Shown here: positions 3,095 to 63,924 of the stretch, in pieces | How the letters are laid out: every line of letters begins with the position of its first letter | Numbering within the stretch: the stretch's first letter is position 1 | Assembly: GCA_000004985.1 (NCBI GenBank) | Contig: GG738886.1 | DNA: 64,000 nucleotides | From: Naegleria gruberi | Taxonomy: Eukaryota | Strand: one strand, 5' to 3' | Program-made: the position numbers and the translations under genes | The notes under the pieces: generated by a model | Databases searched by the model: none | What the model saw: only the letters and a program-made list of their open reading frames with translations | What the model was told of the DNA's origin: nothing

Positions 3095-6000
3095 ATGAAG
3101 GCCTCACCACTCTTGCAGGAATTCATCAACCACTCATCACCACCTCCATCATCATCAGATGATAACAACAGCAACAATGAGGTGGTTGAATCTCCATCGA
3201 AATTACTTAAAAGTGGCTTGAATTCCTTCAAGCTTCATCATCATCATCAACCAACAACATCTTTATTGAGTGATATTTCCAATCTATCATCCTACCGTTC
3301 CAGTGTTGGTATTGCCGTTAATAGTGAGGAAAATAATTTAATAGACAATTTGCAATTAATTAATTCTTCAACGTTGGAAGTTGATAATGTTAACCACAAC
3401 ATTTTGGATGAAATTACCAATTTACAAAACACTCTTCATGAACAACACTTGTTCTATCAACAAATTGGAGCAGATATTGGCTCTACATGTGATCGAATTA
3501 ATGGTTGGCGAATTAACCTACCTCTTATTATCAATCATTTTCGGTTGCAATTATACTCGATTGATAGAACCTACTCACTGATGGCCCTACAGGATTTGGG
3601 ACTACAATCTCCCATGTTTTCCTATCCAACAACATCTTCATCAGCCTTTGGATTTTCATCATTTCAACATTCATTGAATGGACACGATTTGATGGTTACT
3701 TTGTATAATATGATGCTAGAAGAACAGCAACAACAATCTGCATCAAACTCTTCAAATACCATTGCTAGTACCAATAGCAATAATACCATTGGTGCTCCTA
3801 CTCCTTCACTGTCGGCTTCTTCTCTTGTCAAGACAACAGGCAAATATTCAAAGTTATTTCAAAGTTTGTGGAGTAATAGCAATGAATCAACCTCTCCAGG
3901 GAATACCAACAATAATCCACTTCCATCATCATTACTACAAGGATTGGATGGTGGTGGAGGGAGTAACTTGTTCAAATTTTCTTCATCCATTCCAAAACCA
4001 TCCCGATTGTACAAATTTCAAGATAAGGATCATCCACTCTCTGTATTGAAACATCACTATGAGGAATTGATAGAGTATCTTCGATTGAATCCAAAGTTTT
4101 TCAGTAAGGTTATCAAGTATTGGATTTCTAAACAAACTCTTTCACAATTATATGTGGCAAAGGAGTATGATGCTCATGAGAGAATGGCCTTTATTATTAA
4201 TTATTCGTTTTATGGAAATTTATCAAATCCATTAGAATCCAAATGTTTGTTAAAATTCATCAAGGTAGGTTTTGAGTTGAGGAATTGTTTGAATTTAAGA
4301 TTTTGAAATATTCAGTATACTTTGGAGAATGTACTTGATGATTGTTCAAATGATAATCCATTTGAGATTTTTGAGAATGTATTTCTATTCAGACTTGTTT
4401 TTCTCTATGTGAGAAGAAAAGGAAAGGAATTTGTAAAGAATGTGCTTGGAGAAGCAATGATTGAATTATTTTCGAATGAGGATTTGGAATTACCAATTGT
4501 ATCATATGATGTGCCACCTTCAGAGCAAAAAGCTGAACAATCAAAAAGCAAGTCAGGCTTTTTATTCTTTCAAGCTGCATGTGCAACTAATAATGGTGAT
4601 ACGAGTCCAGTATCTCCAAATTATATTTCTACTAATGTTTTCACTTCATCTAAATCTATGGGTATGTTTTATTTAATTATCATCGTGCATTATTAATTTC
4701 CAATCCCAGTTGAAACCAACCTCTACAATCTATGCACTAGGATTTTATACTCACTCTATGATAACTTTTCTAACTTGTCACCAAACATTCTCCTACTCAT
4801 GAAATACTTATTGAAAGGGATTTCTAAAAAATATGGAAGCAAGCTCAATAATCTATCAAAAGGATTATTACTCAAACGATTCTTCTTTGGATGGTATTTA
4901 CTTCCTGCAGCTTCTAGACCTGAGTGTTTTGGACTGGCTAGTGTACCTGCACTAGGTACAACTCAGTCCAAAGTTCGAACCATCGTTCTCGTCTTGCAAG
5001 CAATTGCCTTAGAGAAGCCATTCGAAAAATTATCTTCACTAAGCTATCTTAATGATTTCATCTTTATTCACAGCGCAAAAATCAATGAAATGTTTGAAAA
5101 ATTAGTATGTGAATGGTTCTCAGAAAAGAATGATTTGATTGAGGGACTGAAGCACTATGCAAACACTGTAGCAAAGAAGGACTCTACTGTTTCATTCTCT
5201 ATCGAAGAAATGAAGAAAAATCAGGTACTTTCTCCAACTTGCTTGTCCACAAAAGACATTGAGTTGATATTAAATGTATGCATGGATTCTGAATTTTTAA
5301 GCAAGTCAGACTCGCCTATTGTGGAAACAGTCAATGATATTAAATCTTGGAATAGAACTAAATTCAAAGATGAAAAGTTCATAGTATTGAACTATAAGGA
5401 TTTGAAGAAGAAGGAAATTATGGAATCTTTAGAACTTTCTGAAACCACAACACCTAGAAGTTCATTTGAAGCCATTGTACGTCAATTCAAACAAGTATTT
5501 TTGATGGTTAATTCAGTGGAGAGAATTTGTTCGGAAATGAAATCTATCAACTCTGATTCAACCACAACATTATTGCAACTTCTCTCTTTCCTTGATGTGA
5601 GGGAACGAAATGAAAAAACTTGGGAGAATGGAGTGAGTAGTGTCTACATTCAAGAGCTTTCTCAAAGTTTGAAGAATACCTCCTTTTCCATCGAATCTAT
5701 AATCAATAGAATCTATGGAGACTTAAAGACCAGTGATACCAATCTCGACATTATGATAGGAAAGCAAAAACAATTGTTGAGAATTTTACAAAGTATTGAA
5801 CTGCAAGTGAATGATCTTGAAAGAGAAAGAGCGTACGTTGATGATATGTTCGATGATTTGTTGGTTGGAGAGCTTATTTCTAGCATTGATTTTAAACAAT
5901 TTTGTAAAGATTTTTCCAAATCAGCATTCATAGAAGATCAGTTAAATATAATCAAGAACCAATACATCACTAGAAAGGTTGAACTTTTAAACTCCCTCAA

Positions 6001-43764: not shown

Positions 43765-45090
43765 TTAAGGTAAGAAAGTACCAGTTGCTTTTGTTGTTTG
43801 TGCCTTGATTGATTCCAAGATTGGTGTTAATTTGGCAGCCAATTTAGAAGGTTCCTTTCCATTTGCCTTTTTAGATTCTTCAACCAAAATAACCATATCG
43901 ACAGGAATGGAGATGATTGGTACCATACCTTTAATCATTAAACTGGTCAAACTCATAATACCTGTAGCACCATTTGTCAATCCACCACGACTATCCAATC
44001 CTTGGTGTCTATGACCAATAAGGGCATCAACAAATTGTACAACTCCAATAGTGTTTGAGCCAACAGAAATGGTACGAGTATCAATGTATGGATCAGTAAC
44101 TCTGTACTCGTAAATCTTTTTAATCATATCATTGACATATTGAGTATCCTTTGCCAAGAGTTCTTGAATTGCCTTTGCAGATTTCTTGGCATGTTTCCAT
44201 TCGACAACTGAGGCAACAACACTTGTGGTTGTACCAGCTCCAACACATCCAAGACCAGCTCCTGTAGCCAAAAGCGAACCTCCAAGTGTAAAAGGAGCTG
44301 CTACGATACCTCCCACAATCAATGAAGCACCAACAATGTTTGTGGCAGTACCACCAACTTTGGCCTTTGCTGTTTTCTTTTGTTTCTTATCCAATGCACA
44401 GATCATATCTTCAAGCATTTTAATGATTTCCATACGTTTCTTGAGCCATTCTCTGGCAGATTCTTCAACAGCAACCAATCTCATTGCTTGTATCATGTTG
44501 TTATTAATTGGTGGAGGAACAACAGTGGTTGTTTGTTGCACTACAGAAACAGGTGTCATTGGTGAGACAGTCTTTTCAACAGTTGTGGTTGTTTGTTGTA
44601 CAAATTGACCAGTTGGAGTCATTGGTTGGCCGAATTGAGATTGCATCATTTGAGGTTGTTGTTCCATGTATTGAGGATTCATACTTGGTTGTTGTGGATA
44701 GCCATGTTGCATCATTTGAGGTTGACCATATTGTGGAGGTTGTTGGTACATTCCTTGCTGTTGTGGATAACCTTGTTGGTATTGTTGATATTGTGGTTGT
44801 TGCATACCTGGTTGTTGAGGTTGTTGAGGTTGTTGTTGGTATTGTTGTGGTTGCATACCTTGTTGTTGTGGATAGCCTTGTTGTGATTGCATCATTTGAG
44901 GTTGACCATACTGGGATTGTTGCATACCTTGTTGTTGTGGATACATTCCTTGTTGAGGTTGTTGTGGATAACCTTGTTGAGGAGGGTATTGTTGATATTG
45001 TGGTTGTTGGACTCCAGGTTGACCATATTGTGGAGGTTGTTGCATACCTGGTTGAGGAGTTTGTGGAGAGTATTGTTGTGGTTGGTGCAT
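43765..45090 (-). CDS. ApoL-like membrane-insertion domain protein, paralog 2, with N-terminal prion-like Q/P/G/M/Y-rich repeat domain
   Basis: The first ATG is at 45090 ([10 protein letters not shown]...); the ORF-track start at 45252 is probably UTR. About 180 aa of imperfect PQQGYPQQ(G)MQQ repeats come first. The C-terminal 230 aa are colinear with the 40206..41210 protein ([68 protein letters not shown]...[21 protein letters not shown]...[39 protein letters not shown]). Confidence 0.55.
44560..45090 (-). repeat. imperfect tandem codon repeats encoding PQQGYPQQ(P/G)MQQ prion-like tract
   Basis: Repeated ccttgttg/ggttgttg nucleotide units on the plus strand. They generate several long spurious plus-strand ORFs (44186..45143) composed of V/L/W-rich reverse-frame translations. 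Confidence 0.6.
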
Positions 45091-45564
45091 TTTGTTTTGT
45101 GTTGAAAAATTATATGACTCAAGTCTGTTATTTAGCCTGTTGATTCGTATGAATTCTTTGGTCCGTTGTAACATTCGGAATGTCATTGTCCAATAAAAAT
45201 ACAATGAGAAAGTGACAGAAACAAGTTGCAAAATACAATTGTGGCAATTCAAATATGATTTGTGTGTTAATTGCCAAAAAGTCGAATTATTGTCTTACGA
45301 AAGGAAACATATGCATGTTACTTGGTTGATTTGATCAAGAAAATTGGCAATTCACATCCAAATGTGATTTGATAACTTGTTTGTGCATTCTAAAAGTATT
45401 CTGTTGTATCAACCAAGTTGCTGTTGTAAAGTCTAACTACAGTCAGAGTTGGTTTTAATTGAAGTTTTCCCATAATCCACGTACAGATTTCTTTTTAATT
45501 GCATATGGCACTTCCAAAGCTCCTCTCAATACTTTCAGAATATCAATTCCCATACTAACAAGTT

Positions 45565-46658
45565 TTAGTTTAAATCAAATATACTAGTAACTACGTACAA
45601 TATCCCAATAATACCTGCAATTTGTCCTAGTAGTCCTTCTATTGATGATGTAACCACCTCTTGAATCTTATTCTCATTCAATGAAGAATAGGCAACTGAA
45701 ATTACCACAACATGAGGATCAATCTCAGTCAATTCGACAATGGACAATAACGAATCCCATCTTACAAAAACTGTATCTGGATTTTCTACTGAGGGTTTCA
45801 GTGTTTCTGTCAAAACTTTGGTCAAGATGAAATAATTGTCAACCCCAGAAATGGCAAAATTAGTTTCTGAGAAAACTTTTGGAATGGTTCCAGGCTCATG
45901 GAAGCTTACTTGTAGACCGAATCGTGTATCTCTTTCTATTGGAACAGGAGGAACACTAAAATAGAATGAAATAGTACCAGCATATCCCGTCGCGTTGGCT
46001 TTTTGAAAGCTTAATATCAAAGATTAATAAACTACACATACCTGCAAGAAGAGATGATCCATTGTTGAATACATAGCATGAGAATAATTGACCATTCTGA
46101 AAGATGGTTACAAAATCATACGGAATTTCAAAAGTTTCAACAATTCCCAGCTCACCATTCACTTTGGAAATTAAACTTTAAGGTTAAATTACAATAGCTA
46201 CAATCAACCATAGCATTCCAGTTGCATATCGAAATGGCTGGAAAGTACAATGGCACCGACTCTACAAAGGATGTTGATGTTGTTGGATTGTTTTGAGAAG
46301 TGATGAATTGCTGAGAGGCATCTACACTATACCAAATGCATAGGGCAATTGAGATGAACCAGCCAATAATTGTTATCACTTCTCCAATAGTAAAAGGACA
46401 ACTAGCTAGCAGCCTAATGGTGGATGTCTTATTTTTCAAATCCTTCTCTTCAAAATTCGAGAAAGCTATAGGCATTGTCTTGTAATCTTTTCCTTCATCT
46501 TGATTGGTTTGATAATGCACCTGTCTGTTTCCTTCATTAACATTCATCGATGGTTGTTCCTCCTCTTGTATGTTGTTTTGTTCTACGATATTGTCATTCC
46601 GAATGATAGTATTATCAACAACATCGTCATCATGGTGAGGTTGAATTTGTTGGGACAT
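45565..46658 (-). CDS. ENaC/degenerin (amiloride-sensitive Na+ channel, ASC) family-like protein, 3 exons
   Basis: Exons 46658..46193, 46161..46042 and 45998..45565. Intron 46192..46162 is 31 nt with a GTAATT donor; intron 46041..45999 is 43 nt with a GTATGT donor. Total 339 aa. TM1 is FTIGEVITIIGWFISIALCIWYSV. The post-TM1 hallmark YFPAISICNWN matches FPAVTICN. Pre-TM2/TM2 is IEGLLGQIAGIIGILYVVTSIFDL, resembling the GxS selectivity region. The 31-nt intron is the shortest inferred, so that junction is less certain. Confidence 0.5.
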
Positions 46659-46733: not shown

Positions 46734-47763
46734 TTAGTTGTACAAGAGCACACCCAAATCATCAACAACCAACAGCTCACCACTATGAACATTCAAACAA
46801 CAACCAGACAATCCATAAGGTCTACAGGTATGTCTGAGCGAGAAGGAATAATCAAATCTGTGCCTCACGACAAGAGTGTTACTAGCCTTGCAAGAGATGA
46901 TGATAAAGTCTCTATCAATGGTAATGTTCAGCCATATTTTAGAGTTTACCTCCTCCTCAACTGTGAATATCTTGACTAATTCATCATCCCGAATGCACAA
47001 TACTGTGTTGCAGGTTGTGATGAAACATTCACCAACATCATTGAAAGCTAGGGACAGAGGATCTATCAATTTAACAATACCTATTGATGAGAATGTAGAA
47101 ACAAGTGTGCCATCGATTGGATTTAGTTTGACAACTCTATTGTTGCCCGTATCACAAACAAATAATGTAGATTTGTTGTTATTATCATAGTAGTCATCAT
47201 CATCAAATGGAATGCCAAACCCTTCATTGCCAGCAAACTCACATGATGAATTTCCTCGAGGGGATTTACCATGATGGTACATGGCAATACCATTCAGAAA
47301 TTTACCATTAAACCTGCTGGTCCACACGGGTGAGTGATTGGAGGTTGATAATTGTTCCTTGATATTGTACTTTAATACCTTATCATTTCTGGTGGTTACA
47401 TATAAATCATCATCGCCATCAATACACATACGCACAGGGCTGGCAAATACCTTGAGTGTGTCGGTACTCTTTCGAATGAAGGTCAAAGAATTGAATTCTC
47501 TTATTGCCACAATCACAGACGAGAATCAAGTTGTGCCACTGTGAGACTTTTACATCTGATGCAAAGTAAAATCTCTGATTGTCTCCTCCGCTATATTCTG
47601 TGCCAAGCTGACCAATTTGATTGAATTGGTAGGAGTAAGTTGGTTTTTGTTGTGGGCCGAGTTGTTGTTTCAACTTGGAAAGCAGCAGCGAAATTGATGG
47701 AGTTGATTGGACAGCATCATCCGGATGAAATATAAAAAATGTATCTACAAAACTGTTGGACAT
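46734..47763 (-). CDS. NHL-repeat beta-propeller protein with apparent frameshift near 47455..47480
   Basis: ATG at 47763 (aataaaATGtcc; MSNSFVDTFFIFHPDD...). NHL signatures are ILVCDCGNKRIQFFDL (upstream frame) and LFVCDTGNNRVVKLNP, FASPVRMCIDGDDDLYVTTRNDKVLKYN (downstream frame, 47516..46734). The two frames overlap over 47419..47516 with no intron-compatible GT-AG pair, implying a 1-nt indel. Confidence 0.45.
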
Positions 47764-48423
47764 TTTATTAGAATGTTGAAGTAAATGTATGTAATGGAAC
47801 GTACCTAAAGCATCGTGATATTGAATGTTTTTTTTCAAAATTACTTTTTAATTTTTCTTTTATTTTTCAAATTTTAAAGTTTAACGGTAAATATGGGAGG
47901 TGCTGAGATTATTTTTGTTGGTAAAACCAAACAACGTTGCAATTCTCTAAAACCGATTCAATCATCATCTTGCTATACAATCACAAAGAACTCAATTCAA
48001 GGTTTAATTCATCATTAATTAAATTGAAATACCAAATGCAAGTTTTGATAGGACTTCCATTCAATGATTTACTGTTTCGACTTGCTATAGTAATCCTATA
48101 TCCCATTAAGGAATTTGGACCCCTCGTTTATCTCTCTTAATCCCATTCGGAAAGCAATCACCAAAACAACCTGAGAAACTAAGCTTTTGATCCTTAAGGA
48201 AAGCCTCAATTTCAAAAAAATTGGTGTAAGAAGAGACAGGGAGAGAATGCGATTCTTTTTGAAAAATCCAAATACTGGATATTATGATAAGGGGGCATCT
48301 ATATGTTTGTCCTTATCGGCCTTATTAGCAAGGTTGTTATCCTTATCATCATTATCTTTATTTTCAACATCAGGATTAATATCCTTAAAAAGTTGTGGTG
48401 ATGAGGAATTTTCTTCTATTAAG

Positions 48424-51400
48424 ATGCTATCATCATCACCGTCATCATTAACAAGTTTAAATAATTCTAATGGGATAAGAACAAGATCAAAGTATCATTC
48501 TTCATCATCCCTTGTACTTTTATTCATCATTATTTCAATGATACTAGTTTCATGTTTCATGTGTGAACCAATTCAGGCCATCTCTTGTAGTGGAATAGAT
48601 TCCAACGACCTCACTGCTTGCTCTGGGATGGGGACTTGTATTCAGGATGAAACATGCCAATGCCTTAACGGATATTCAGGCGCTAATTGTGAGTATGTGG
48701 AGTGTTTTGGAGTTACAAATGAACCTGGTAATGAGGTTTGCTCTCGTCACGGGCAGTGTTCATCACCAGACAATTGTCAATGCGATTCTGGGTATTATGG
48801 CTCTACATGTTCCATCACAACTTGTTTTGAGAAGTGGAGTAACTTGTCGAATAGCAACAACATTTGCTCTGGGCATGGTACTTGTTCATCATTGGACGTT
48901 TGTGAATGTAATGCTGGATACTTTGGTAGCGAATGTGAAAAGGATCTTTTCGCTGGGTACAAACTAATTAGTATTAGCCCAGTAGTGATAGCAAAAAATT
49001 CACCTGACAATGTTGAATTGAAAGCAAGTATTGCCCTTCCTTCAATGGTTCTATCCTCTGCCTACTCACACGATGGTTCACAACCTTTACCATTTGTTGT
49101 TTCCAACTCTACAACTTCTATTGTTATTACAGATACGGTAAATGATGCTTTTGGTCAATTGTTAGTTCAGGAAGCAGATAGAAAAGCAGGTGAACTTTAC
49201 AATCTTCCATGTGATTTTAACATTTCCAATCCCGACCAAGAACTCAATAGTTTGACCATCATTAGAAATGGTGGAGTCTATTGTTTTCCAAATGGTGTAA
49301 CTATAAGAGGACACACATTTATTATTGTCGGTACAGAAACAGTCCTTTTCAAATCTCCTTTTGTATATTATTATGGAGCTTCCTTTTACTATCTGGAATG
49401 TGCCTCCTATAGGAACGTTTTCTGGTTAACCTATGACCAAGGAGATAATGGAAACTTCTTTTCTGGAGATATTCATGGAACTGTTATTGGAATTTCTCCT
49501 TATCATGGAATTCAACTTTACGATAACTTGGTGGGGGCTGTATGGTACACTGGTGGAACAGATATGATTCTATTCGATGTGAATATTTTACCACCAATAA
49601 CCTTCAATTCAAATGAAAGTTTTAGTCGAGATGATTGCATGGAAACAAGTTGTTATGGAATTTCATTCCGATTGAATAATACTTGCTTTGGAAGAGGTCA
49701 TTGTGTGAAGAATGATACTTGTTTGTGCAATACGGATTCATACGGAAGTAATTGTTTAATTTCAATTTGTAATGGTGTCTACGGAAATGAAACCAATGTA
49801 TGTAGTGGTCATGGTGAATGCCAAAGTAAGGACAGTTGTGAGTGCGAAAGTGGTTATTATGGAAATTGGTGTGAATTGACCACATGTTTTGGAGTCCAGA
49901 ATGACCAGCCGAATACTTGTAATGGGCATGGATTGTGTTCCAAATTGGATACTTGTGAATGTGCTTCTGGTTTTGGATATGGTGGTTCAAGTTGTGAAAT
50001 TCCAATCTGTAATGGAACTATGGCTAATGAAAGTAGTGTTTGTCTATCAAGAGGTCATTGTGTCCAACCAAATATGTGTAGTTGCCAATCAAGTTATTCA
50101 GGGTCAAACTGTGAAATTGCTAATTGTTTTGGAATTATTTCAAATGACAGCTCAGTTTGTTCTGGTCATGGGTCTTGTAATTCTGTAGATACTTGCACTT
50201 GTTCCATTGAATACTACGGAGCCGATTGCTCACAATTTGATTGTTATGGCATTCAATCAGTGAATAGTTCTGTTTGTTATGGAAGAGGACAATGTATTAA
50301 TGTTAATACTTGTTCATGTTCACAAGGATACTATGGCAATGAATGTGAAATCTCCATGTGTGATGGTATTTTGGGCAATTCCTCCCAAGTTTGTTCTAGT
50401 TATGGACAATGCAAGGATACGGATGTGTGTGATTGCCAATTGGGCTATTTTGGTGTGTTTTGTAATGAAACAACATGTAATAGTATAGCAATGAATGACT
50501 CAACAGTATGTAATGGACAGGGAACTTGTTGGCCATTGGACACATGTGTTTGCTCCAATGGATATGATGGCTCTAATTGTCAAAATCCTATTTGCTTTGG
50601 AATTGTTTCCACTAATACCTCTGTTTGTGGAGGTCATGGAGTTTGTTCGCAACCAAATATTTGTCAATGCAACCAGGGATATTACGGATCCCAATGTGAA
50701 ATAGTCACCTGTTCTGGTATCATGTCAAATGGATCAACAGTGTGTTCAGGACAAGGGCAGTGTTCTGATATGGACATATGCCAATGCAACAACCATTACT
50801 ATGGATCTAATTGTGAAAAGTTTGATTGCTTTGGTGTATCCTCTCTCTTAAACACCTCATGCTCTGGTCATGGTACATGTCTTGATTACAATACTTGCCA
50901 ATGTTACTCTGATTATTATGGAAATAATTGTGATGTTACCAAATGTTATGGTATTTTCAGTAATTCATCCAATGTTTGTTCATCTAAGGGAAGTTGCCAT
51001 GTACGAGATACTTGTATCTGTTCGAATAATTACCACGGTTCTTATTGTAACATAACAAGTTGTAATGGAGTTTATTCTAATGATGCTTCAGTTTGTTCCG
51101 GTCATGGTTCATGTATTGGGTACGACACTTGTCAATGTTTGAGCGATTATTCTGGAAGTAATTGTCAAGGAGAAATAGTTGACCCATTTGCTGGATTTAG
51201 AATTATTTCAGATTCTTCAGTTTCAATTTCTATTGATTATTTCCTGACAGATTGGCAACCAGTTTTGCAATCCTATACTCGTTACTATGCCTCAAGTTTA
51301 CTTCTTAAAAGTATTTCCTATTTGGATTCAAATATTCAATATCTTCCACATTCGAGTGCAGTTATTCTAAACAGCACAAGTGCACAGGGCATCAATATTG

Positions 51401-54400
51401 TCAACAAGATGAAAACCATCAAGTCCCAGTTATTGGCTTCATTAACCTGCACTAAAACTTACACAAACACTAACTCTCCAAATACTTTTATAATCAAACA
51501 TGGAGGTGTAATTTGTTTCACAGGAGGAATGACATTCGGGCCAGAAAGAACTATTATCATTGTGGGAACAGAGCCTGTCATATTCAAACTCCCATCCTTG
51601 CAGTATAGTGCTCTTAATATTGTTTTTTTGGAATGTGCCTCATATAGAAACTTTTTCTGGATTTTGGATTCAAATAGTTTTATTAAGGGAGCAGATAAAA
51701 CAAAGAATTATCAACCACCAATTCATGGAACATTTATTCAACTCTCTGGAACTATTTCTTTGAGAGGTTACCTTGCAGGTAGTGTATGTGCTTCGAACAT
51801 CAATACTCTTCTCCACGAAGTCACATTTTATGATCCAACCACTTTTGACCCTTTCCAAAGTGTCACTTCACAATGTAATTACACCCTCTGTTACAACATT
51901 CTATCAAATAATCAATCAGTGTGTTCAGGTAAAGGTAATTGTTCTGATTACAACACTTGTGTTTGTAATACGGATAGTTATGGATCTGATTGTTCTTTAT
52001 TTAAGTGTAACGGAATTTTGAGTTCAAACTCAACTTTTGTTTGTAATGGAAGAGGTAAATGTGTAGGGCCAGATGTCTGTTCCTGTAATCCAGGTTATTA
52101 TGGAGATTTTTGTGAGCTGACCACATGTAATGGAATTGAAAATACCTCGCCTCTTGTTTGTAATGGAAGAGGTGCCTGTAATCATTTCAATAGCTGTTCC
52201 TGTAGCTCTACATTTGGGTATGGTGGATCAGATTGCGATATTCCAATTTGCTATCAAAAACTTGCAACCAATCGTTTAGTTTGTAGCTCAAGAGGTGATT
52301 GCTTGGGACCAAATGTTTGTAATTGTACCGAAACTTATCTTGGTGATAATTGTCAACTGACCACTTGTGCTGATATACTTTCAAACTCTTCTCTTGTTTG
52401 TTCAGGCTTTGGATCATGTGTTGGCTATAACAATTGCACCTGTCATACAGGTTTCTATGGAGAAACTTGTGCAGAATATGATTGTTTCGGAGTTAATAAG
52501 AATAATCCAAATGTTTGCTCTTCAAAAGGCGAATGTATTACTGTTAATAACTGCACATGTCAAGATGGCTTTTTGGGTAATAATTGTTCCTACACTACTT
52601 GCTTTGGAGTAAGAAGTGATTCGCCTACAGTTTGTAATTCGAAAGGTTCCTGTAGAGCCAAAGATGTTTGTGAATGTTGGAATGGATATTTCGGAAGTAA
52701 TTGTACTCTGACAAGTTGTGGAGGGATCTATTCAAATGATAGCTCTGTGTGTAATGGACATGGTTCTTGTTGGCCAGCGGAAACCTGCACTTGTTTATCT
52801 CAATATGGATATACAGGTCAATTGTGTGAAATTCCAATTTGTTATACCATAGCAGCTAGTGATCCTTTAACCTGTTCTTCTCATGGCTCCTGTGTTGGTG
52901 TCAATACATGTGAGTGCCAAGCAAATTATACTGGATCCAAGTGTCAAGTTACATCATGTCAAGGAATTCTATCAAACGGCTCACTTGTTTGTTCTGGGCA
53001 TGGTTCATGTATTGAACATGATAATTGTACATGCCTAGCTGGTTACTTTGATACCGCCTGTAATCAATTCACATGTAATGGAACCAACTCCCAAGACAGC
53101 TCAGTTTGCTCTGGAAAAGGAAGTTGCGATTCATATAATAATTGTTCTTGTCAAGCGGGCTATTATGGACCTAATTGTGAAAAGACAATGTGTAATAACA
53201 TTTTGAGTGATAATCCATCTGTGTGTACATCTCGTGGTAATTGTATTGCCCCAGAAGTTTGCAGTTGTAATGAGACTTATTTTGGTACTAATTGTGAGTT
53301 GACTACTTGCAATGGAACTGTTTCAAATAGCAGCTCGGTATGTTCAGGATCAGGAGTTTGTTGGCCATTCGATACCTGCACTTGTTACTCTGACTTGGTC
53401 AGAGAATTCGAAGGTCAATGGTGTGAAAAACGTTTGTGGGATCCTTTCGCTGGATATCGAATGGTATCTCACAATGGTTTAGTTTACCATTTTGATGATA
53501 ACAACAATTTCTACACTCCTGATATTCATACCAATACTAGATATTATCGTTCAAGTATGATTTTAGATATACTTACAAAGATAACACCTACACTCAATTA
53601 CACATCTGATAATGGAGCTCACATTGATAGTGTTAATACTCCCAAAGCATCAGCCTTGGCTGCACTTATGAAAAAGAAAGGTAATTCCATGTGGACACTT
53701 CCATGTACTAAAACAGTTAACAATTCAAGTGATTTGCCATGGATTAGTAAGAGTGAAATTATGATTCGTCACGGAGGTGTTTTCTGTTTCAATATTGAAG
53801 CTTCTTTTCACAACAATATAACCATTATCATAGTTGGAGCTGAACCTGTTGTTATGAAAGTTCCTTCAATTCAATACTCTGCAGTCAACTTTGTATTTGC
53901 AGAATGTGCTTCTTATAGAAATTTGTTTTGGTTTATCACAAGTTATAATCCAAGTTTCATTCAAGGAGGAAATAGAGGGACTGGATATGAGCCTCCAATT
54001 TATGGAACTTTCTTCCCAACCTCAGGTGGTTCCTTCCAACTTGCTGGTCCTTTTGCAGGAAGTGTTTGGGTAACCGGTAATGCATGGACTGTTTTTATTG
54101 ATGTTACTGTTTATCCACCATTGTCAACTGATCCATATGAACCAACAGTTGGTCAATTTTGTAATTATACTCAATGTTTCAATGTTAAATCTAATTTGAA
54201 TACTACATGTTCCGGTAGAGGTCAGTGCATTGATTATAATACATGTGTTTGCAATGCCGATGCTTATGGAGTTGATTGTTCAATCTCCAAGTGTAATGGC
54301 ACATTTAGTAATGTATCAACTGTTTGTAATGGACATGGTTCATGTATCGCTAAAGATACTTGCCAATGTAATACAGGATACTATGGAGAATGGTGTCAAT

Positions 54401-57400
54401 ATACAACATGTGGAGGAATTGAAAGCACTTCACCATTGACTTGTAGAGAAAGAGGTACTTGTATTGCCTATAATCAATGTTCTTGTAATGTCACCAAAGG
54501 ATACAATGGTAATGACTGTGAAATTCCTTATTGTAACAACATTTTGGGAAACACTTCAACTGTTTGCAGTGCTCATGGTTCTTGTGAATTGCCAAACACG
54601 TGCAATTGTTCAGCAAACTATTTTGGAACATTTTGCCAATATACCACTTGTGCAGGCATTGAAACATATAATTCATCAGTTTGTATTGGTAGAGGTCAAT
54701 GTACACTTTACAATAATTGTACTTGTAACTCACCTTATTATGGATCCAATTGTGAACAATTCAAGTGTTTTGGAGTGAATAACAACTCTAGTACTGTTTG
54801 TTCTGGAAGAGGTATCTGTACAGATTATAACACCTGTGTTTGTAATGCTGGATATTTAGGATCGAATTGTGAAATTTCATCCTGTTTTGGAATTTTAAGT
54901 AATGTGTCCCTTGTTTGTAAAGCTCATGGAGTTTGTGTAGCTACGAATACTTGTGTCTGTGCTGCTAATTACATGTCCAGTGATTGTTCTGTGACTTCCT
55001 GTTCAGGAATCAATTCAACTTGGTCTTCAGTATGTCATGGAAGAGGTTCATGTTGGCCTTACAATACATGTAATTGTAATGCCAAATTGGGTTACACTGG
55101 AAATGATTGTAATGAGCCAATGTGTGACGGTCTTACAAACTCTGATCCTTATGTTTGTAGCGGAAGAGGAGGTACTTGTGTTTCTCCTAATCTATGTGTC
55201 TGTAACGATCCATCAAAATATTTTGGTAAATTGTGTGAATACACCTATTGTCGAGGTGTTCCAACCAATCTTACTGACACAGCACTCTTCTGTTCTGGAA
55301 ATGGTATTTGTACAGACTATAATTACTGTTATTGTTTTAGTGGATATACAGGAACTGAGTGTGAGTTGGATATGTTTGCAGGTTACAGATTCGTCACCAA
55401 TAAGAATGTTTATGTTTTGAAGAATCAGATTTATTACTTGCCTGCCAATATCGCCATAGGCCCAATGTTGAGTGCTGCTGGGCAGAAGACATACCTTCCT
55501 TACCAACAAGCAGTGAAAACCAATTTGAGAGTTGATGCTACATTGTTGAATGAGCTCCAAATGAGAGCTATGGGTTTAAGGTATAATTTCTTCCCTTGTG
55601 AACATTATATCAAGGACGCTTCAGTATTTGGAAAGAACATAGAATTGAGGGGAGGTGTGTACTGCATTCAGAATCCATGGACAATTGATGGACATAACTT
55701 TACCGTAATTGGTAAAAAACGAACCATTTTTACACTTCCACAGCTGATATATAAATCAGCAAAGTTCACCTACTATGAATGTGCATCTTATAGAGATGTA
55801 ATATTTTATGCCGGTGAAACTACTGGCTACAGCAATTTCACAGGACCTATCGATGCAACCATTTTTGTAAATTCACCAGGTGCAGCAGATTACTACGTGA
55901 ACGGTGATATTAATGGAGCAATCTATATATTTGGAAAACTTGGATCTAACGATGCTCCACCTACTGGTACTGTCTACACTACAGATATGAAATTTATTGC
56001 ACCATACACATTTGATCCAGCTGTTAGATACATTGAATCCAAGTGTAATTATTTCACATGTTTTGGAATTGGCTCTAATATCAATACTACTTGTTCTGGA
56101 AAAGGAAAATGCATAGGCATTGATACTTGCTCATGTATTTCTGGGGCGTATGGGCCTGATTGTTCTCTCAGAATGTGTAATGGAACTTTAGGAAACTTTT
56201 CCAATGTTTGCAGTGGTCATGGTTCATGTATTTCCACTGATATTTGTCAATGTAATGCAGGATTTTATGGGCAATGGTGCCAATACACAAAGTGTTATGG
56301 ATTAGAAAATACTTCTCCAACTGTTTGTTCAGGAAGAGGTTCTTGCTTGTCTGAAAATAATTGTATTTGTAATTCTACTTATGGATACGAAGGTTCACAA
56401 TGTGAAACTCCAATTTGTGGTGGACAATTGGGTATTTGTGCTAGTTCAAGCAGAGGAAATTGTACAGCTCCTGACACTTGCTCATGTTTGGATCATTATA
56501 GTGGTCAATTTTGCCAATGGACTACTTGTAATAGCGTACCTTCTAATTCATCAAGTGTTTGTTCTGGAAGAGGAATATGTGCTGCATATAATACTTGTCA
56601 ATGTAAAGCAGGATATATTGGATCGATCTGTGAAAAGGATGTCTTTGCTGGATACAAATTAATTAGTAACAAGGCAGTTCTTTTAGCAAAGAATTCAAGA
56701 GCTAGCTCTGTGCTGGCAGCAAGTATTGCCCTTCCTTCAATGACAATTAGACCACCAACATTTTTAAATCCAGATAAGGTCTATCCATATGTTGCAAGTG
56801 GTAAGTCTGTAATTACAAAGCCAACCGATTCCTACTATCAAACTTTAATGACCGAATTATCAAAGAAATTCGATGAGCTCATGTCCGCTCCTTGTGACTA
56901 TGTAATTTCAAAACCAGATACTGAAATGGGTCAGAAAATTCTCATTGAGCATGGTGGCGTCTATTGTTTCCAGAATGGTTGGAACATTAATGGTCAAAAG
57001 TTTACAATTGTTGGAACTGAGCCAGTTATTTTCAAAGCTCCATATATCAAGTATTCTGGAGCTAACTTTGTATATTTGAAGTGTGCTTCATATAGAAACG
57101 TGTTTTGGGTCACTCAATACTACAACTTGACTGGCAGAGTAAATTGGGTTAACAGTAATTCATTTTCTGGAACAGTTCATGGCACAATAGTTGCTAGATA
57201 TGGGTATGATTATTTAGTTTCCGATGATATACAAGGAGCTATTTGGTTTTATACTCAAGAAGATGGATATATCACTTTGAAAGATGCTAAACTTACAACA
57301 CCTCCAACATTTGATCCTTACATGCCATATGTTACTGGATCTTGTGATACTTATACTTGTTTTGGTATTGATCCAACTTCGAATATGAGTTGCTCAGGTA

Positions 57401-60400
57401 GAGGTGTCTGTAAAGATTACAATACATGTACATGTCAAGATGATTCCTATGGTATTGATTGTTCCATTTCTAAATGTTATGGAATTTTTGGAAATGTGTC
57501 AATTGTTTGTTCCTCTCATGGTAATTGTACATCAAAGGATACATGTACATGTAGTGAAGGATACTTTGGAGACTTGTGTCAATACACTTCATGTGCTGGC
57601 ATTCCAAATAACTCTACAAATGTCTGTAACCAGAGAGGTGTTTGTAATATTTACAATTCTTGCACTTGTAACACAACTTTGGGTTATGATGGATCGAATT
57701 GTCATGTTCCAATATGTAATCATCTAGTAGGAACATGTACAGATCTATTCAGAGGTAACTGTACTGCTCCTAATGCATGTTCATGTGAAAATCATTATTA
57801 TGGGCCTTGGTGTGAAAAGACAACTTGTGGTGGATTTGAGTCAACTAATACACAATCTGTTTGTAATGGAAGGGGTAATTGTACAGCTTATGAAAAGTGT
57901 ACCTGTTTACATGGATATGCAGGAGCATTTTGTGAAGAGTATAGTTGTTTTGGAGTTGTGAGAACTCTTCCGTCAACTTGCTCTGGAAGAGGAGCTTGTT
58001 CTTCAATTGACCAATGTGATTGTAGCGCAAATTATTATGGATCTAATTGTGAAATTAGCAAGTGTAATGGTAAATTTGGAAATGAGTCTACAGTGTGTAG
58101 TTCTAATGGTCAGTGTATTGAGACAAATATTTGTAATTGTTCAGAGCATTATTATGGAAATTGGTGCGAAAAGACGACTTGTTTTGGAGTTGCTTCCAAT
58201 GAGTCAAATGTTTGTTCACATAGAGGACAATGTAAAGCATTCAATACTTGCCAATGCAATCAAAATTACTTTGGAGATAATTGCGAGTTGACTACTTGTA
58301 ATAATCTTGCTTCAAACTCTGGTTTGGCTTGCAATTTGGTTGGCAATTGTACAGATTACAATACATGTGTTTGTCCTTATGGATATACTGGTTCATGGTG
58401 TGAACAGACTACTTGCTTTGGTGTAGCCACAAGTTCTCCAAGTGTTTGTAATGGACATGGTAATTGTACAACTATGGATATGTGTAGTTGTGATCCTAAA
58501 TATGGTTATGGTGGAAGTAATTGTAACATTACAACATGTGATGGAGAATTGTCTACCTCTTCTCAGGTCTGTAACTCACATGGTACATGTATTGGACCAA
58601 ATCAATGTCAATGTGCTCCACATTATATTGGTGACAATTGTCAAGTGACAACTTGTTTTGGAATTCTGTACAATGACTCTAGTGTTTGCTCAGGAAAGGG
58701 TTCTTGTGATGGATTCGATAACTGTACATGTGAACTTGGTTATTCTGGAGCAGAATGCGACCAGTACACATGCAGTGGAGTTTTCAATTCAAATCCCTTA
58801 GTTTGTTTCGGTAGAGGAAACTGTACTGAATATGATATCTGTGTTTGTGAAGCAAATGCCTTTGATTTTGATTGTTCTGGTGTTTCTTGTAATGGATTTA
58901 TCAATGCAGATCCAATGGCTTGTTCTTCACATGGTTCATGTACCCAAAATCAATAGTGTAATTGCTCTGAAAATTATCATGGTGAATGGTGTGAGCTCAC
59001 AACTTGTAATGGAATTGATTCGAATAGTACTGAAGCATGTTCTGGAAGAGGAAGATGTGTAGATTATAATAGTTGTGTCTGTTCGAATGGATACTATGGG
59101 GATGACTGTCAGGATTACAATTGTTATGGTATTTCACATTTTTCAAATTTGACATGTTCCGGATATGGTAATTGTTCCGATATCGACACATGTGAATGTT
59201 TTGAAGATTCTATTGGTTTAGATTGTTCCGTCAACGTTTGCAATGGTCTTCCTATGAATTCCTCATTAGTTTGTTCAGGACTAGGCAGTTGCACTCGACC
59301 AAATTATTGCAATTGTTCAGATAACTATTTTGGAAGTAATTGTGAATGGACCACATGTTATTCCATCGCATCATTCTCTCCATCCACATGTTCTGGAAGA
59401 GGAAATTGCTCTGATTTTGATAAGTGTATATGTAATTCTGATACATTTGGTTCCGATTGCTCTCTCTTCAAATGCAACCACACCCTTGGCAATGAAACTC
59501 AAGTTTGTAGTGGACGAGGTTCATGTATTGGCACTGATGAGTGCAATTGCACTGAGAATTATCACGGAGAGTTTTGTGAATTTACTGAATGTTTCTCTCA
59601 ACTTTCTAATGAAAGTTCAGTTTGCTCTGGAAAAGGAAAATGCATTGAGTTCAATAATTGTTCATGCCAAGATGGATATTTCGATCAAGATTGTTCTCAA
59701 TTCCAATGTAATGATACCTTCAGCAATGAAACCACAGTTTGCTCCTCAAGAGGTTTTTGCATTGATTCGAACAAGTGCAATTGCTCAGAAAATTACTTTG
59801 GACTGAATTGTGAATTGAGCATTTGCTTTACAATTCTTTCTAATGACAGCAGAGTTTGTTCTAGAAGAGGAATTTGTGTTGATTATCAAAACTGCTCATG
59901 TTATGATGGATTTTATGGTGAAAGTTGTGAGTTTGCTGTAAGTGCAGTGAACAATCAATCAAATTCCACTCAATTGAATAATCAAACTATTGATTCCAGT
60001 AATGTAACCATGAATAATAATTCATCGGTGGTTTTTAACAATACTGATAACAGTACAAATACTGATAATAGTAGTGTTGTGGTCACTAATCACACAATTT
60101 CAGAAGACAATACAACACGTTCTAATTCAAATGGAACTGTTTATAATAACAATAGTACAGACCTTTCTAATGAAACAATTTCAAATAATGGAACAGTTTC
60201 TGCTAACGCAAATGTTACTATCCCTGACAATTCTACTTCTTCCACTAATCAAACTGTTTCTCCAAGTACTGATTCATCAAATGGAACTGTTTCCAATAAT
60301 ACTGTAAATGCAACAGCTTCTGATAATACTACCACTGATAATTCCAACATTACAATTTCGGATAATACCACTTCACCTGGATCCAATAATCAAACTATTT

Positions 60401-63400
60401 CTCCAAGTGTTGATTCATCAAATGGAACGATTTCAAATAACACTAATCCTTCGGTAGTTTCGAACAGCTCAACTGTTTCAAACTCTTCTTTTACTAACGG
60501 AACAGTTTCCAACAGCACAGTCACTTCAAATAGTAGCACAATTACTTATAATACCACAATTTCATCAAACGAAACAATTTCGGTTAATGTAACAAGCAAC
60601 ACATCAAAAATTACAAATTCAACCTCAATCTTGAACGAAACTGTTCCTGTAATGCCTGAGCCTGATGTTGTGGTTGCTTTGCCGGTTGCAATTATAAAAC
60701 GAATGAGCTCGAACGTGTTCAGCTCATGCGATGATATTAGAGTGGATGGCTCGCAAAGTTTCTCACAAGATTCGACCTATCTTGACTATTATTGGAATTT
60801 ATTGGAAGCAAGCTCTTTGACTAGTTTACAAAGTTTGCCTAATAGTCCAATCATTGTCATTGACTCTACATTGAAGCCAGGACAATATGTTGTTTCACTA
60901 AAAGTTGGAAATGGAAGAAATAGTTCAGTGAACTATTCGAAACCTTTCACCAAGTCAGCAAATCCACTTCCAAAGATTTATATTGCTAATTCTTTGATTG
61001 AAAAGTATGGAAATCAATTCCCAGTAACCATCAAGAAAGTTATCACAGAATCAACTTGCCAAAAGGAAAAATCAGTAATTAGTTGGAGTCAATTAAGTGG
61101 ACCAACAGTTAAATACTCAATTGACAGTTTCAGTAATCTTGCTATTGCCTCATTGACTACCTATGGTTTCCATACTTACATCTTCCAAGTTTCAGCTCAT
61201 TACCCTTCAAATCCATTAGAAAGAGTTTCTGCCAATGTAACACTTGTTACAAAATCTCCTGAATTGCAACTTGAATTATTGACAACTGATGCAAATTCTA
61301 ATTACACAACTATTGTAATTGGATACACAGATCCAGAGAGTGCTTATAATACTCTTTCTGAGGAATGGAAATGGACTTGTTTGAATAATACGAATCCAAG
61401 TTTAATTTCCTTCTTGGAATTGATTTCTAAAAACAAGCAAACTGAAGTTAGATTTGATGGTTCATCACTATTTCGTCAAAACATACCTCGCTCTATTGAA
61501 CTATCTTTAAGAATTTCCAAGTCTGATAGAACAATCTCCAAGTCAATTATAGTTTACTTTGGATTGGTTCCACCTATTGTAAATATTATTTCAGTAGAAC
61601 CAAGCACTTTGTACGTTCTTCCTGGAGAACCTCTCAGTATTCAGACATTAGTCACCAAAGGAAATGTTAATGTTACATTGAATGGACAAGTTGTTGAAGT
61701 ATCCGATCAACAGCCAACCTTGGATGTTGACACTAAACTATTAGAACAAGGTTCTGAAAATACAATTACAATCACATCGACTGATCCAGTGACTGGAATG
61801 TCTAGCTCTTCAAGCTATACTTTCAAAGTTGCTACCTATCCGAAACCATGTGCTTGTTTCATTTCTCCTTTAAGTGGAATTGCATTAGAAAGCGATTTTG
61901 AATTCTATTGTACGAATTGTAAAAATTCAGAAAATAATATTGACTATCGATATGGATTTATAGATGACAGATCCGAAACAAGAATTCTATTATTCGATTC
62001 TGGTGAAATTTATGCTTCCAAGTTGCCATCTCCATTTTCTGGAAATACTGTCAAATGTTTCTTTGATATTGTCGATACAGAGACAGGTGCTTTTACAACA
62101 GTTTACAAAAATGTCACTATAGAAAAACCTCTCGTTACAAAAGTCGAACAAGTTCAAGGACTAGTCGAATCATGGACTATTGTGGGATCCAACTATTTCA
62201 GTAATGGAGATTTCAGTAAGAGTATTTATCAATGTGCTTCAACTTCAAGAACTGATTCAGTTTTATTGAGACAGATATTAGGAAATGAATATTTAGAAAG
62301 ATCAGAAAGTATTGAATGTGAGAATGGTGTTGATATTTCAGGAGTGTGTAAATGTCATGATGGATATATTGGTAAACATTGTGATAAGGCGATTAGTGAC
62401 TTTTCTAATATTCAAGGTACTAAATTGCAAGTACTCAGAGAAATGGTGACCATTGCCAATAGCACTGGTGAAATGAATAATCAATATTTGTCATTGCTGT
62501 CATTTGCCATTGATTCGATACTTGTCAATTATCAATATTTAGATACAAATACTATATCTGAATCAATGTATACTTTGAATATGTTTTTGGAATATTCCTT
62601 ATCTGATGAAAGTTTGAGATTACCAACCGGGGTTGATAAGTTATTAGAATCTAGTCAATATTCAACATTTAATTACATTACTGATAAGCAATACCTTACT
62701 GATCAAACGTCAAATGCCTTAAAATTATTGAAATCTCTCAAATTGTCATCTCAGTTACAAGCAAGATCTGTTTCCATGTCAAATGCCAAGAGAAACATTA
62801 AGGGATCATTCTTTAGTATAGTTTTGGGTAAGAGCTTGTTAGCTGATCATCAAAATAATATTCAAGATCCCCATTCATCTTCGTCCATAAGTATGGAGAA
62901 TGGTTTCTTTGCTTATACTGCAAGATCTAAAGTTTCATCTATCAAAAAGCCATATATTTACATCCTGTCTGTGACTGATGACATTTACTCATTGGGAACT
63001 AAACTCAAAGTTGTGGAAAAGAATAACAATGTTCAAAAGGTTTCAAATTTGGTTTCTCCAATAGTTTCTGTAGATTTTGTGGATGTTGCCACTACCATGA
63101 ATCCAACAAAAATAATTTATTCGATTCCAATTAATTTGAATGGATCAACATTTGAATTGAGAAGAGGAACTTTTGATTTATCAGTCAAGACACTGGACCA
63201 GTATTGTAAAAACTTTGATGAAGGTTCTATTAAAGTTCTTTCAGACTGTACCTTAATTTCATTGACTGCAACACATGCCAAATGTCAATGCTCCAAATTT
63301 ACAAATGTATTTGTTATTGAAACAACGACCATTTCAACTTATTCCTACACCTACTTGGCAGCTATTGGTTTCTCTCTTGTAGCTGTCTGTTCCATTGGAA

Positions 63401-63924
63401 CCTTGGTAATTCTCTCAGTTTGCGTATGGTGGAAATTCAAGAAACCTAAACTTTCCAAAAAGAGAAGTCTTGTCTTTACGGATGCCTCTGAAAATGAGAT
63501 TCAACTCAGAATTCAAGAAATTATTCTCGGAGACCATACATACAGTAATTCAGAAACTAACTCTGATGATTCATTGATTATTGATGTGATAGATGATTGT
63601 CCATCAGGAGGAAGCAGTGGAACAGGTTCAAATAATGGAAGAATGAGAAGTTATTCAATGCAAGAAAGACCAACCACAATGATGAGTTCATCCTCTCCAA
63701 GAGGTGGAGTTGGTGCCAATATACTTTCATCTTCACCAAGAGGAACAAGAAATCGTTCATCTTCAGTTGCTCCATTGATTATTCAGGAAAGCCATGAATT
63801 GGATTCGAATGCATCAAGTTCTGATGAATTATTAAAGAATCATTCAGAGGGAGGTGTTAAACGATCTGGAAGTGGTATTTGGGATTTGAGAGAAGATGGC
63901 TTTCTAGAACATGAAAAATTTTAA
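48424..63924 (+). CDS. giant type I membrane protein: signal peptide, ~150 tenascin-type EGF repeats, five ice-binding-like (DUF3494-like) modules, N-glycan-rich stalk, GPS-like motif, single TM; one in-frame TAG at 58954..58956
   Basis: ORFs 48187..58956 and 59149..63924 are in the same frame (59149-48187 is divisible by 3). The 64 codons between them are open and continue the EGF pattern (CNCSENYHGEWCELTTCNG...). The first ATG, at 48424, precedes a hydrophobic signal-like segment (LVLLFIIISMILVSCFMC). The EGF units follow C.G.G.C.....C.C..GY.G..C. The TM helix YLAAIGFSLVAVCSIGTLVILSVCVWW lies at ~63352..63435 and is followed by a basic/S-rich tail. Confidence 0.6.
48940..49640 (+). repeat. 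ice-binding-like (DUF3494-like) module 1 of 5 within the giant gene
   Basis: KDLFAGYKLISISPVVIAKNS...GGVYCFPNGVTIRGHTFIIVGTETVLFKSP...YLECASYRNVFWLTYDQGDNGNFFSGDIHGTVIGIS... This is colinear with fungal/bacterial IBP beta-helix motifs (FAVLAgs; GvYk.....tGtltLdgqgdpnavFIFq; aqAkNVFWqvG; F.GtIla.T.it). Confidence 0.45.
51169..51880 (+). repeat. ice-binding-like module 2
   Basis: DPFAGFRIIS...HGGVICFTGGMTFGPERTIIIVGTEPVIFKLPSLQYSALNIVFLECASYRNFFWIL...IHGTFIQLSGTISLRGYLAGSV. Confidence 0.45.
53425..54160 (+). repeat. ice-binding-like module 3
   Basis: DPFAGYRMVS...HGGVFCFNIEASFHNNITIIIVGAEPVVMKVPSIQYSAVNFVFAECASYRNLFWFIT...IYGTFFPTSGGSFQLAGPFAGSVWVTG. Confidence 0.45.
55362..56040 (+). repeat. 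ice-binding-like module 4 (most diverged)
   Basis: DMFAGYRFVT...RGGVYCIQNPWTIDGHNFTVIGKKRTIFTLPQLIYKSAKFTYYECASYRDVIFYAG...IDATIFVNSPGAADYYVNGDINGAIYIFG. Confidence 0.4.
56633..57345 (+). repeat. ice-binding-like module 5 (closest to module 1)
   Basis: DVFAGYKLISNKAVLLAKNS...HGGVYCFQNGWNINGQKFTIVGTEPVIFKAPYIKYSGANFVYLKCASYRNVFWVTQ...VHGTIVARYGYDYLVSDDIQGAIWFYT. Confidence 0.45.
59935..60650 (+). repeat. S/T/N-rich stalk with ~45 N-x-S/T sequons and internal ~35-aa repeats (mucin-like, heavily N-glycosylated)
   Basis: NQSNSTQLNNQTIDSSNVTMNNNSS...STNQTVSPSTDSSNGTVSNNTVNATASDNTTTDNSNITISDNTTSPGSNNQTISPSVDSSNGTISNNTNP... This sits between the last EGF array and the membrane-proximal domain. Confidence 0.5.

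Follow-up and report, generated by a model that had tools for sequence, protein, structure and literature searches.

The 64,000-nucleotide (nt) stretch of Naegleria gruberi DNA analysed here (contig GG738886.1 of assembly GCA_000004985.1), referred to throughout as the window, is AT-rich eukaryotic DNA with a GC content of ~35%. On its minus strand, at 46658..45455, lies what is very probably an unannotated N. gruberi paralogue of the ASC channel family with a short ectodomain, interrupted by two introns of 43 and 44 nt and carrying one extra nucleotide within 46172..46169. Read through that frameshift, the gene is predicted to encode a protein of 371 amino acids (aa), which would consist, in order, of a cytoplasmic N-terminus of ~90 aa, a first transmembrane helix (TM1), an all-β ectodomain of ~200 aa, a second transmembrane helix (TM2) and a short basic C-terminus. 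A preliminary description, made from the DNA letters, had recognized an ENaC/degenerin-like channel with a short ectodomain in a protist; the family, the ectodomain (~200 aa) and the host (N. gruberi) are all borne out. It had modelled introns of 31 and 43 nt, the first of which is here read as coding sequence.

No protein from this locus was present in the protein collection searched, where the best match is 65–68% identical; the reference proteome thus lacks an annotation for the gene. A tblastn search across the window returned this ASC-type locus only. What is new is thus this locus, unannotated and possibly defective; what is known is the Naegleria gene family. The annotation should be revised to an ASC-family gene of 371 aa that holds two introns and one single-base problem.

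Reading frame and introns of the gene

Three open reading frames (ORFs) of 168, 68 and 151 aa are found on the minus strand at the locus, as had been described, and splicing out 46192..46162 and 46041..45999 gives exactly the 339 aa reported. That product does not stand as the protein of the gene: it lacks a conserved β-strand with an invariant cysteine, and its C-terminus is false. Of its two introns the 43-nt one is genuine, and the 31-nt junction covers a 1-nt frameshift in conserved coding sequence.

The interval 46192..46162 corresponds to coding sequence in all relatives. In the frame of the first exon it reads CNLTLKFNFQ, the first seven of these residues (CNLTLKF, 7 of 7) being the same in the paralogue P0001 (CDYCNLTLKFATKVNSTLGIVE). 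All eight homologues compared encode C-x-[YFT]-C-[ND]-[LI]-T-L at this site, and the alignment continues as -x-x-x-T-x. Two of them, P0003 (N. lovaniensis, L002) and P0004 (Logan contig, L001), have no intron and run through the site in one open frame, so that their sequence is independent of any splice model. The 339-aa model has a gap of 11 residues here, which takes in Cys, Thr and Leu positions that do not vary in the full-length homologues. The interval is thus not an insertion relative to the continuous homologues, and the preliminary description's own fallback, that the junction is mis-modelled, is the correct one. Alignment with the protist ENaC-like sequences, which it had proposed as a check, agrees on the family and places the 31 nt within the coding sequence.

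The position of the frame change is narrowly defined. The frame -3 high-scoring segment pairs (HSPs) of all homologues in tblastn extend to 46173-46179, which is inside the claimed intron and in agreement with alignment A1, and frame -1 restarts at 46171-46159. For P0001, the closest paralogue, frame -3 covers residues 244-315 at 46388..46173 and frame -1 covers residues 317-357 at 46168..46046. This leaves 4 nt (46172..46169) for one residue, and one extra base therefore explains everything. The read-through product (..CSYCNLTLKF(N/I)SKVNGELGIVE..) equals the paralogue in length here.

Alternative gene models were compared on a family profile built from six homologues with the window sequence left out. 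The 339-aa model scores 373.8 bits, the same model with a third intron added (361 aa) 441.0 bits, and the frameshift read through (371 aa) 472-474 bits; taking out 46192..46162 lowers the score by ~32 bits. In the AF2 model of P0004 the segment forms a predicted β-strand (residues 147-154), each 10-residue block from residue 81 onward having a mean pLDDT of at least 82. The 31-nt 'intron' is a modelling device, by which the frame is restored through the dropping of 11 conserved codons.

Some points on the gene structure weigh against this reading. Both junctions and the frameshift are placed entirely by comparative evidence. The Pfam ASC score does not discriminate between the spliced and the read-through versions (47.6 and 46.2 bits), being uninformative on the frameshift, and for this reason the clade-specific profile was used, which alone separates them. 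The interval 46192..46162 does carry GT..AG ends. The annotation of N. fowleri allowed introns down to 30 bp (PMC8296547), so that size alone cannot exclude 31 nt; the published mean intron length of N. gruberi is 203 bp.

A genuine 31-nt intron, giving a protein without the 11 residues CNLTLKFNFQS, would account for these boundaries and for the open frame that is regained. It would also agree with the minimum applied in N. fowleri, although that derives from predicted genes, and, should the frameshift be real, splicing of this kind might conceivably rescue the gene. It is nevertheless unlikely. The match to the closest paralogue includes the invariant Cys, Thr and Leu positions, the segment is in frame in the two intronless ORFs, and its removal costs profile score and a confidently modelled β-strand. 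Furthermore, the donor GTAATT lacks the +5 G found in the three supported introns (GTATGT, GTACGT and GTAAGT), and 31 nt is shorter than all other candidates here (40 to 52 nt). A bridging intron of 40 nt at 46201..46162 (GTAGCT..AAG; 358-aa protein) is the sole other GT..AG pair that restores the frame and its size falls within the local range. It would, however, remove 14 conserved residues including both cysteines of C-x-Y-C; its family-profile score (424.9 bits) is the lowest among the models with the correct C-terminal exon, its Pfam score is only 45.7 bits and its donor is poor, all of which makes it very improbable. More improbable still is a real frameshift decoded by programmed +1 ribosomal frameshifting. 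The site does hold a T/A-rich, slippery-looking run (TTT-AAT-TTC) and the remainder of the gene is intact, but no paralogue or orthologue requires a shift here and the prior is very low; we know of no programmed +1 frameshifting in Naegleria.

The preferred reading, a single extra base, leaves the origin of that base to be explained. The chances are roughly even between a consensus error, which would leave the gene intact, and a null mutation or null allele of very recent date. No other damage is seen: start codon, stop codon, both pairs of splice sites and the conserved positions are all preserved. Of 102 positions at which five homologues agree without exception, the window protein departs at 7; for the annotated paralogue the figure is 11 of 86, and the two have several of these departures in common. 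Such a near-intact gene fits both a consensus error in a T/A run and very recent loss through a null mutation or allele. No second copy of the locus turned up, either with exact 30-mers or when metagenome contigs were scanned from a protein seed.

The 43-nt intron at 46041..45999 (GTATGT..AAG) stands as first described. It is an insertion relative to the intronless P0004: residue 195 of this homologue aligns at 46043 and again at 45999 in tblastn, so that 43 nt are inserted in a continuous ORF, and the junction yields an ungapped family alignment. A further intron of 44 nt, at 45598..45555, had been missed. The pre-TM2 segment of the preliminary description is in consequence only partly coding: IEGLLGQIAGIIGI is genuine, and the LYVVTSIFDLN that follows, up to its stop, is read-through into this intron. 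The 339-aa model, ending ..GIIGILYVVTSIFDLN, therefore breaks off midway in TM2. Splicing at the 44-nt intron links it in frame to a small ORF (45553..45455), giving ..GIIGIFMGIDILKVLRGALEVPYAIKKKSVRGLWENFN before the stop. P0004 residues 328 and 329 flank the intron, at 45598 and 45553. Both intervals thus look like spliceosomal introns, as GT..AG insertions with adjacent P0004 residues on either side.

With the 44-nt intron removed, the Pfam ASC score rises from 40.8 to 47.6 bits, the match to ASIC2 in the PDB improves from E 0.009 to 1e-5 and the family profile gains 67 bits. The ASIC alignment then spans TM2 (GIFMGIDILKVL against GLFIGASILTIL). The true C-terminus reads ...GIFMGIDILKVLRGALEVPYAIKKKSVRGLWENFN, and its stop falls outside the interval first described. 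A tail of the form GIDxLKxLRGxLExP[YQ]....K[ST].R.I[WY]..FN stands at the end of every full-length homologue. The parts of the gene are listed in Table 1.

Table 1. Parts of the ASC-family gene, positions in the window
Feature	Position	Strand	Content
Coding segment 1	46173..46658	-	ATG at 46658 to Phe162 (TTT 46175-46173); variable cytoplasmic N-terminus; TM1 46391..46323 TIGEVITIIGWFISIALCIWYSV; YFPAISICNWN 46247..46215; conserved CSYCNLTLKF
Claimed 31-nt intron	46162..46192	-	coding (CNLTLKF..) plus frameshift; ends GTAATT..AAG
Probable frameshift site	46169..46172	-	AATT inside TTTAATTTCC; 4 nt in the place of one codon, i.e. one extra base
Coding segment 2, frame -1	46042..46168	-	SKVNGELGIVETFEIPYDFVTIFQNGQLFSCYVFNNGSSLLA
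Genuine intron, 43 nt	45999..46041	-	GTATGT...AAAAG
Coding exon	45599..45998	-	β-rich ectodomain core (RFGLQVSFHE.., VDNYFILTK..) and first half of TM2 (LLGQIAGIIGI, 45633..45601)
Genuine intron, 44 nt, missed earlier	45555..45598	-	GTACGT...GTTAG; splits Phe codon TT/T within TM2
Terminal exon	45455..45554	-	second half of TM2; G-I-D 45550..45542; conserved tail LKVLRGALEVPYAIKKKSVRGLWENFN; stop TAA 45457..45455

Besides the two introns of this gene, one of 40 nt in a related metagenome gene (L003 5677..5716) is supported, and a crude ORF-bridging scan of the window, which is supporting and not decisive, gives further candidates of 43-52 nt. Introns of ~40-50 nt are therefore normal in this genome and nothing supports one of 31 nt. 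The idea of a ~30-nt spliceosomal intron in Naegleria finds no evidence here and should be dropped. More generally, a short GT..AG interval can hide a frameshift, and intronless homologues reveal it.

Family assignment and predicted fold

Membership of the ASC family (PF00858) is found with every version of the protein. The Pfam search that had been suggested gives 40.8 bits (E 1.9e-10) for the 339-aa model, 47.6 bits with the third intron added and 46.2 bits with the frameshift read through, against a gathering cut-off of 23.6. Against PDB sequences the match of the 339-aa model to ASIC2 is weak. A Naegleria-only profile (A3) matches ASIC2 with an E-value of 5e-6, and a profile of 49 sequences (A4; Naegleria and unnamed metagenome relatives) matches ASIC1 (5.5e-17), FaNaC (2.8e-16) and ENaC-alpha (5.9e-14). 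PF00858 is matched by 48 of these 49 relatives, and the structure model of the homologue P0004 is ASIC/ENaC-like.

The motif after TM1 noted at the outset, YFPAISICNWN, is present and aligns with FPAVTLCNLN of ASIC2, following the pattern FPxVTxCN. In the 49-sequence alignment its cysteine is invariant and the proline of FP is at least 90% conserved. The hydrophobic segments of the window protein at 46391..46323 and 45633..45509 align to TM1 and TM2. The LLG-Q at the start of TM2 aligns with LLG-D of ASIC, and its glycine, which we take to be the Deg site by cASIC1 numbering, is found in 41 of 47 family members. The TM2 motif GxxG(I/L)FxG is kept. The His-Gly motif expected before TM1 is missing: residues 1-92 of the window protein contain no HG, and a 39-sequence N-terminal alignment (A5) shows neither an H nor a G conserved ahead of TM1. 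Nor is the G/S-x-S selectivity filter present: G-I-D aligns with G-A-S of ASIC, and across the clade the G is found in all 43 sequences, while the filter position is D in 33 of them and S in 2, with K following in 35 (G-x-D-x-x-K).

The AF2 model (m88cd2813755a) is that of P0004, a homologue sharing 58% identity with the window protein; its pLDDT is 83.6 with 49 aligned sequences, compared with 46 from a six-sequence alignment. By DSSP the model consists of TM1, 12 strands, one 4-residue helix and TM2, and the predicted transmembrane helices, residues 78-110 and 314-349, flank the putatively extracellular β-domain. The palm and β-ball core is recovered in the model. The finger, thumb and knuckle domains are not seen in the predicted ectodomain, in which the 12 strands and the single short helix are accommodated in ~200 aa. 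Peripheral domains vary within the ASC family, and their absence therefore marks a variant and does not exclude membership. On the model the protein is accordingly best described as an ENaC/ASIC core, palm and β-ball, without finger, thumb and knuckle helices. In Foldseek, PAC/ASOR and ASIC are tied as matches (E ~1e-13); PAC is almost fully covered, with a TM-score of 0.67 when normalized by target length.

Homology and the predicted fold suggest that the product would be a subunit of a trimeric, non-voltage-gated channel with two transmembrane helices. TM2 would line the pore, with the conserved G-x-D-x-x-K taking the place of the G-x-S filter of ASIC and ENaC. Such a pore motif predicts a cation pore with a carboxylate ring and not an ENaC-like Na+-selective filter. 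To our knowledge an Asp ring with a Lys one turn below is not a characterized filter type in the superfamily. Two points again tell the other way: the structure modelled is that of a homologue and not of the window protein, and with both HG and G-x-S absent the channel properties of ASIC and ENaC are not transferable. As modelled, this would be the smallest ENaC/ASIC fold, and one lacking HG and GxS, the motifs that underpin present models of selectivity.

The Naegleria homologues already carry a precomputed PF00858 match; the kind of gene is therefore known, and this locus is a further, unannotated member. ENaC/degenerin homologues in N. gruberi were reportedly noted by Studer et al. in 2011. 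Among the papers searched, none was found that describes ENaC-like genes of Naegleria. The protozoa examined have been said to be without DEG/ENaC (PMC3681921), and non-metazoan DEG/ENaC have been placed only in Tunicaraptor and heterokonts (Elkhatib et al., 2023; PMC10507113).

Relatives and neighbouring genes

The homologue search yields Naegleria-type proteins only, all previously annotated with PF00858, from N. gruberi, N. lovaniensis, N. fowleri and metagenome or Logan contigs. The annotated Naegleria members of the clade are N. gruberi XP_002680309, XP_002680183, XP_002672040, XP_002680073, P0001 and P0006, N. lovaniensis C9374_003816 and C9374_012982, and N. fowleri FDP41_006660. These Naegleria proteins are 43-68% identical to the window protein and 313-398 aa long where the model is sound, and they have the G-I-D-x-L-K of TM2 and the ...KSxRxIWxxFN tail in common with it. 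The window locus differs from them in lacking a protein model in the collection and in its 1-nt frameshift.

Intron content varies among the relatives, P0003 and P0004 being intronless and P0007 having a 40-nt intron elsewhere. On a heterolobosean-like metagenome contig with two tandem ASC-like genes (L003 3501..5974, JGI metagenome 3300002220; also L004), one gene (P0011, 370 aa) is intronless, whereas its partner contains an intron of 40 nt (GTAAGT..GTTAG) at 5677..5716, unlike the positions in the window gene. Given these differences, gain or loss of introns within the family seems frequent.

P0001, a 492-aa N. gruberi 'predicted protein' on a 665-kb scaffold, has the look of two tandem ASC-like genes fused into one model, with a partial copy from CNWN followed by a second copy. 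It ends ..GQIAGIIGIL, just where the 44-nt intron of the window gene lies, which suggests that the intron is shared and that this model was cut off in the same way as the 339-aa one. P0019 (1563 aa) also resembles a fused model.

An exhaustive profile search gave 225 clusters (50% identity) at E <= 1e-3, of which 51 also pass E <= 1e-30; metagenome proteins of 280-400 aa make up the majority. A weak tail holds 450-700-aa proteins matched at TM1 and TM2 only, the pattern and length that canonical animal DEG/ENaC would be expected to show. Sources were looked up for 20 clusters, and the members named there are further N. gruberi paralogues, N. lovaniensis and N. fowleri proteins, the malawimonad Gefionella okellyi and TARA Oceans samples. 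N. gruberi has at least eight copies, several in tandem. Short ASC-like proteins (the P0097 cluster; P0098) occur on many 1-4 kb contigs of TARA Oceans samples from the small size fraction (0.22-3 µm) and in Gefionella. The clade is abundant in uncultured protists.

Two unrelated window ORFs, at 1387-2787 (+) and 9295-11085 (-), are identical to N. gruberi XP_002674078 and XP_002674154, which identifies the DNA as that of strain NEG-M. Upstream of the ASC-family gene an ORF at 46734..47516 (-) has a candidate 43-nt intron at 47389..47431 (GTATGT..CAG), joining it to a further upstream ORF. Its stop is only 75 nt from the ATG of the ASC gene, and the intergenic or promoter region is therefore very short. 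The downstream neighbour at 43768..45252 (-) encodes 495 aa, Q/P-rich over a long N-terminal half and with an Apolipoprotein L (ApoL) domain at the C-terminus (PF05461; 38.6 bits, cut-off 25.9). ApoL is known as an animal family, and its match in a heterolobosean is unexpected. Two very large single-exon ORFs lie at 48187..58953 (+), with 3589 aa made almost entirely of teneurin-type EGF repeats, and at 59149..63921 (+), with 1591 aa of EGF repeats and a REJ domain (PF02010), a module of polycystin-1 and the sea-urchin egg-jelly receptor.

Comparison with ASIC/ENaC and PAC/TMEM206 channels

In comparison with the DEG/ENaC/ASIC channels (chicken and human ASIC1, ENaC alpha, beta and gamma, and FaNaC) the protein has the same two transmembrane helices around a predicted extracellular β-domain, the same FP(A/S)(V/I)(T/S)xCN after TM1 and the Deg-site glycine, and a TM2 in which G-x-x-G-(L/I)-F-x-G aligns residue-for-residue with ASIC. 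It differs in its ectodomain of ~200 aa as against ~370 or more, in having no His-Gly before TM1, in the replacement of G-A-S or G-S-S by G-I-D followed by a conserved Lys, and in being non-metazoan.

PAC (ASOR, TMEM206; PF15122), an animal anion channel, is alike in another way, having ~350 aa, two transmembrane helices and a 12-stranded β-domain; the P0004 model shows the same minimal predicted fold. PF15122 is matched by none of the 49 clade members at E <= 0.01. An hmmsearch of PDB chains reaches PAC with an E-value of 3.6e-11 for A4, 2.3e-5 for the TM1-β1 profile A5 and 3e-3 for the Naegleria-only A3. An hhalign comparison of A5 with an alignment of PAC exon fragments gives a probability of 92.7% (E 4e-7, 58 columns); only exon fragments of PAC were usable, and the alignment therefore covers TM1 and β1 only. 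A motif is shared beyond the transmembrane helix, the family sPstSVSYeekD against HPVMSVSYKEVD in PAC, with P-x-x-S-V-S-Y-x-E-x-D in common. Elsewhere, in TM2 and the remaining ectodomain, the sequence resembles ASIC/ENaC and not PAC. The link to PAC is limited to TM1 and β1, part of it may reflect hydrophobic bias, and it is a lead and not a result.

The likeness of TMEM206 to this superfamily has been called 'structural convergence' in the literature, where the two families are treated as unrelated in sequence. A different view, which we regard as possible although the balance is somewhat against it, is that these short ASC proteins form a widespread protist clade that links DEG/ENaC/ASIC and PAC/TMEM206 in both sequence and fold, the two being divergent homologues. 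The clade would be that of the 225 clusters, including Heterolobosea, Gefionella and marine plankton samples, and would keep only the 12-strand core. If this were true, the G-x-D-x-x-K that the clade conserves in its pore would stand for a kind of selectivity still uncharacterized in both families. The statistically significant sequence matches to both bear on the kinship of the trimeric two-helix cation and anion channels.

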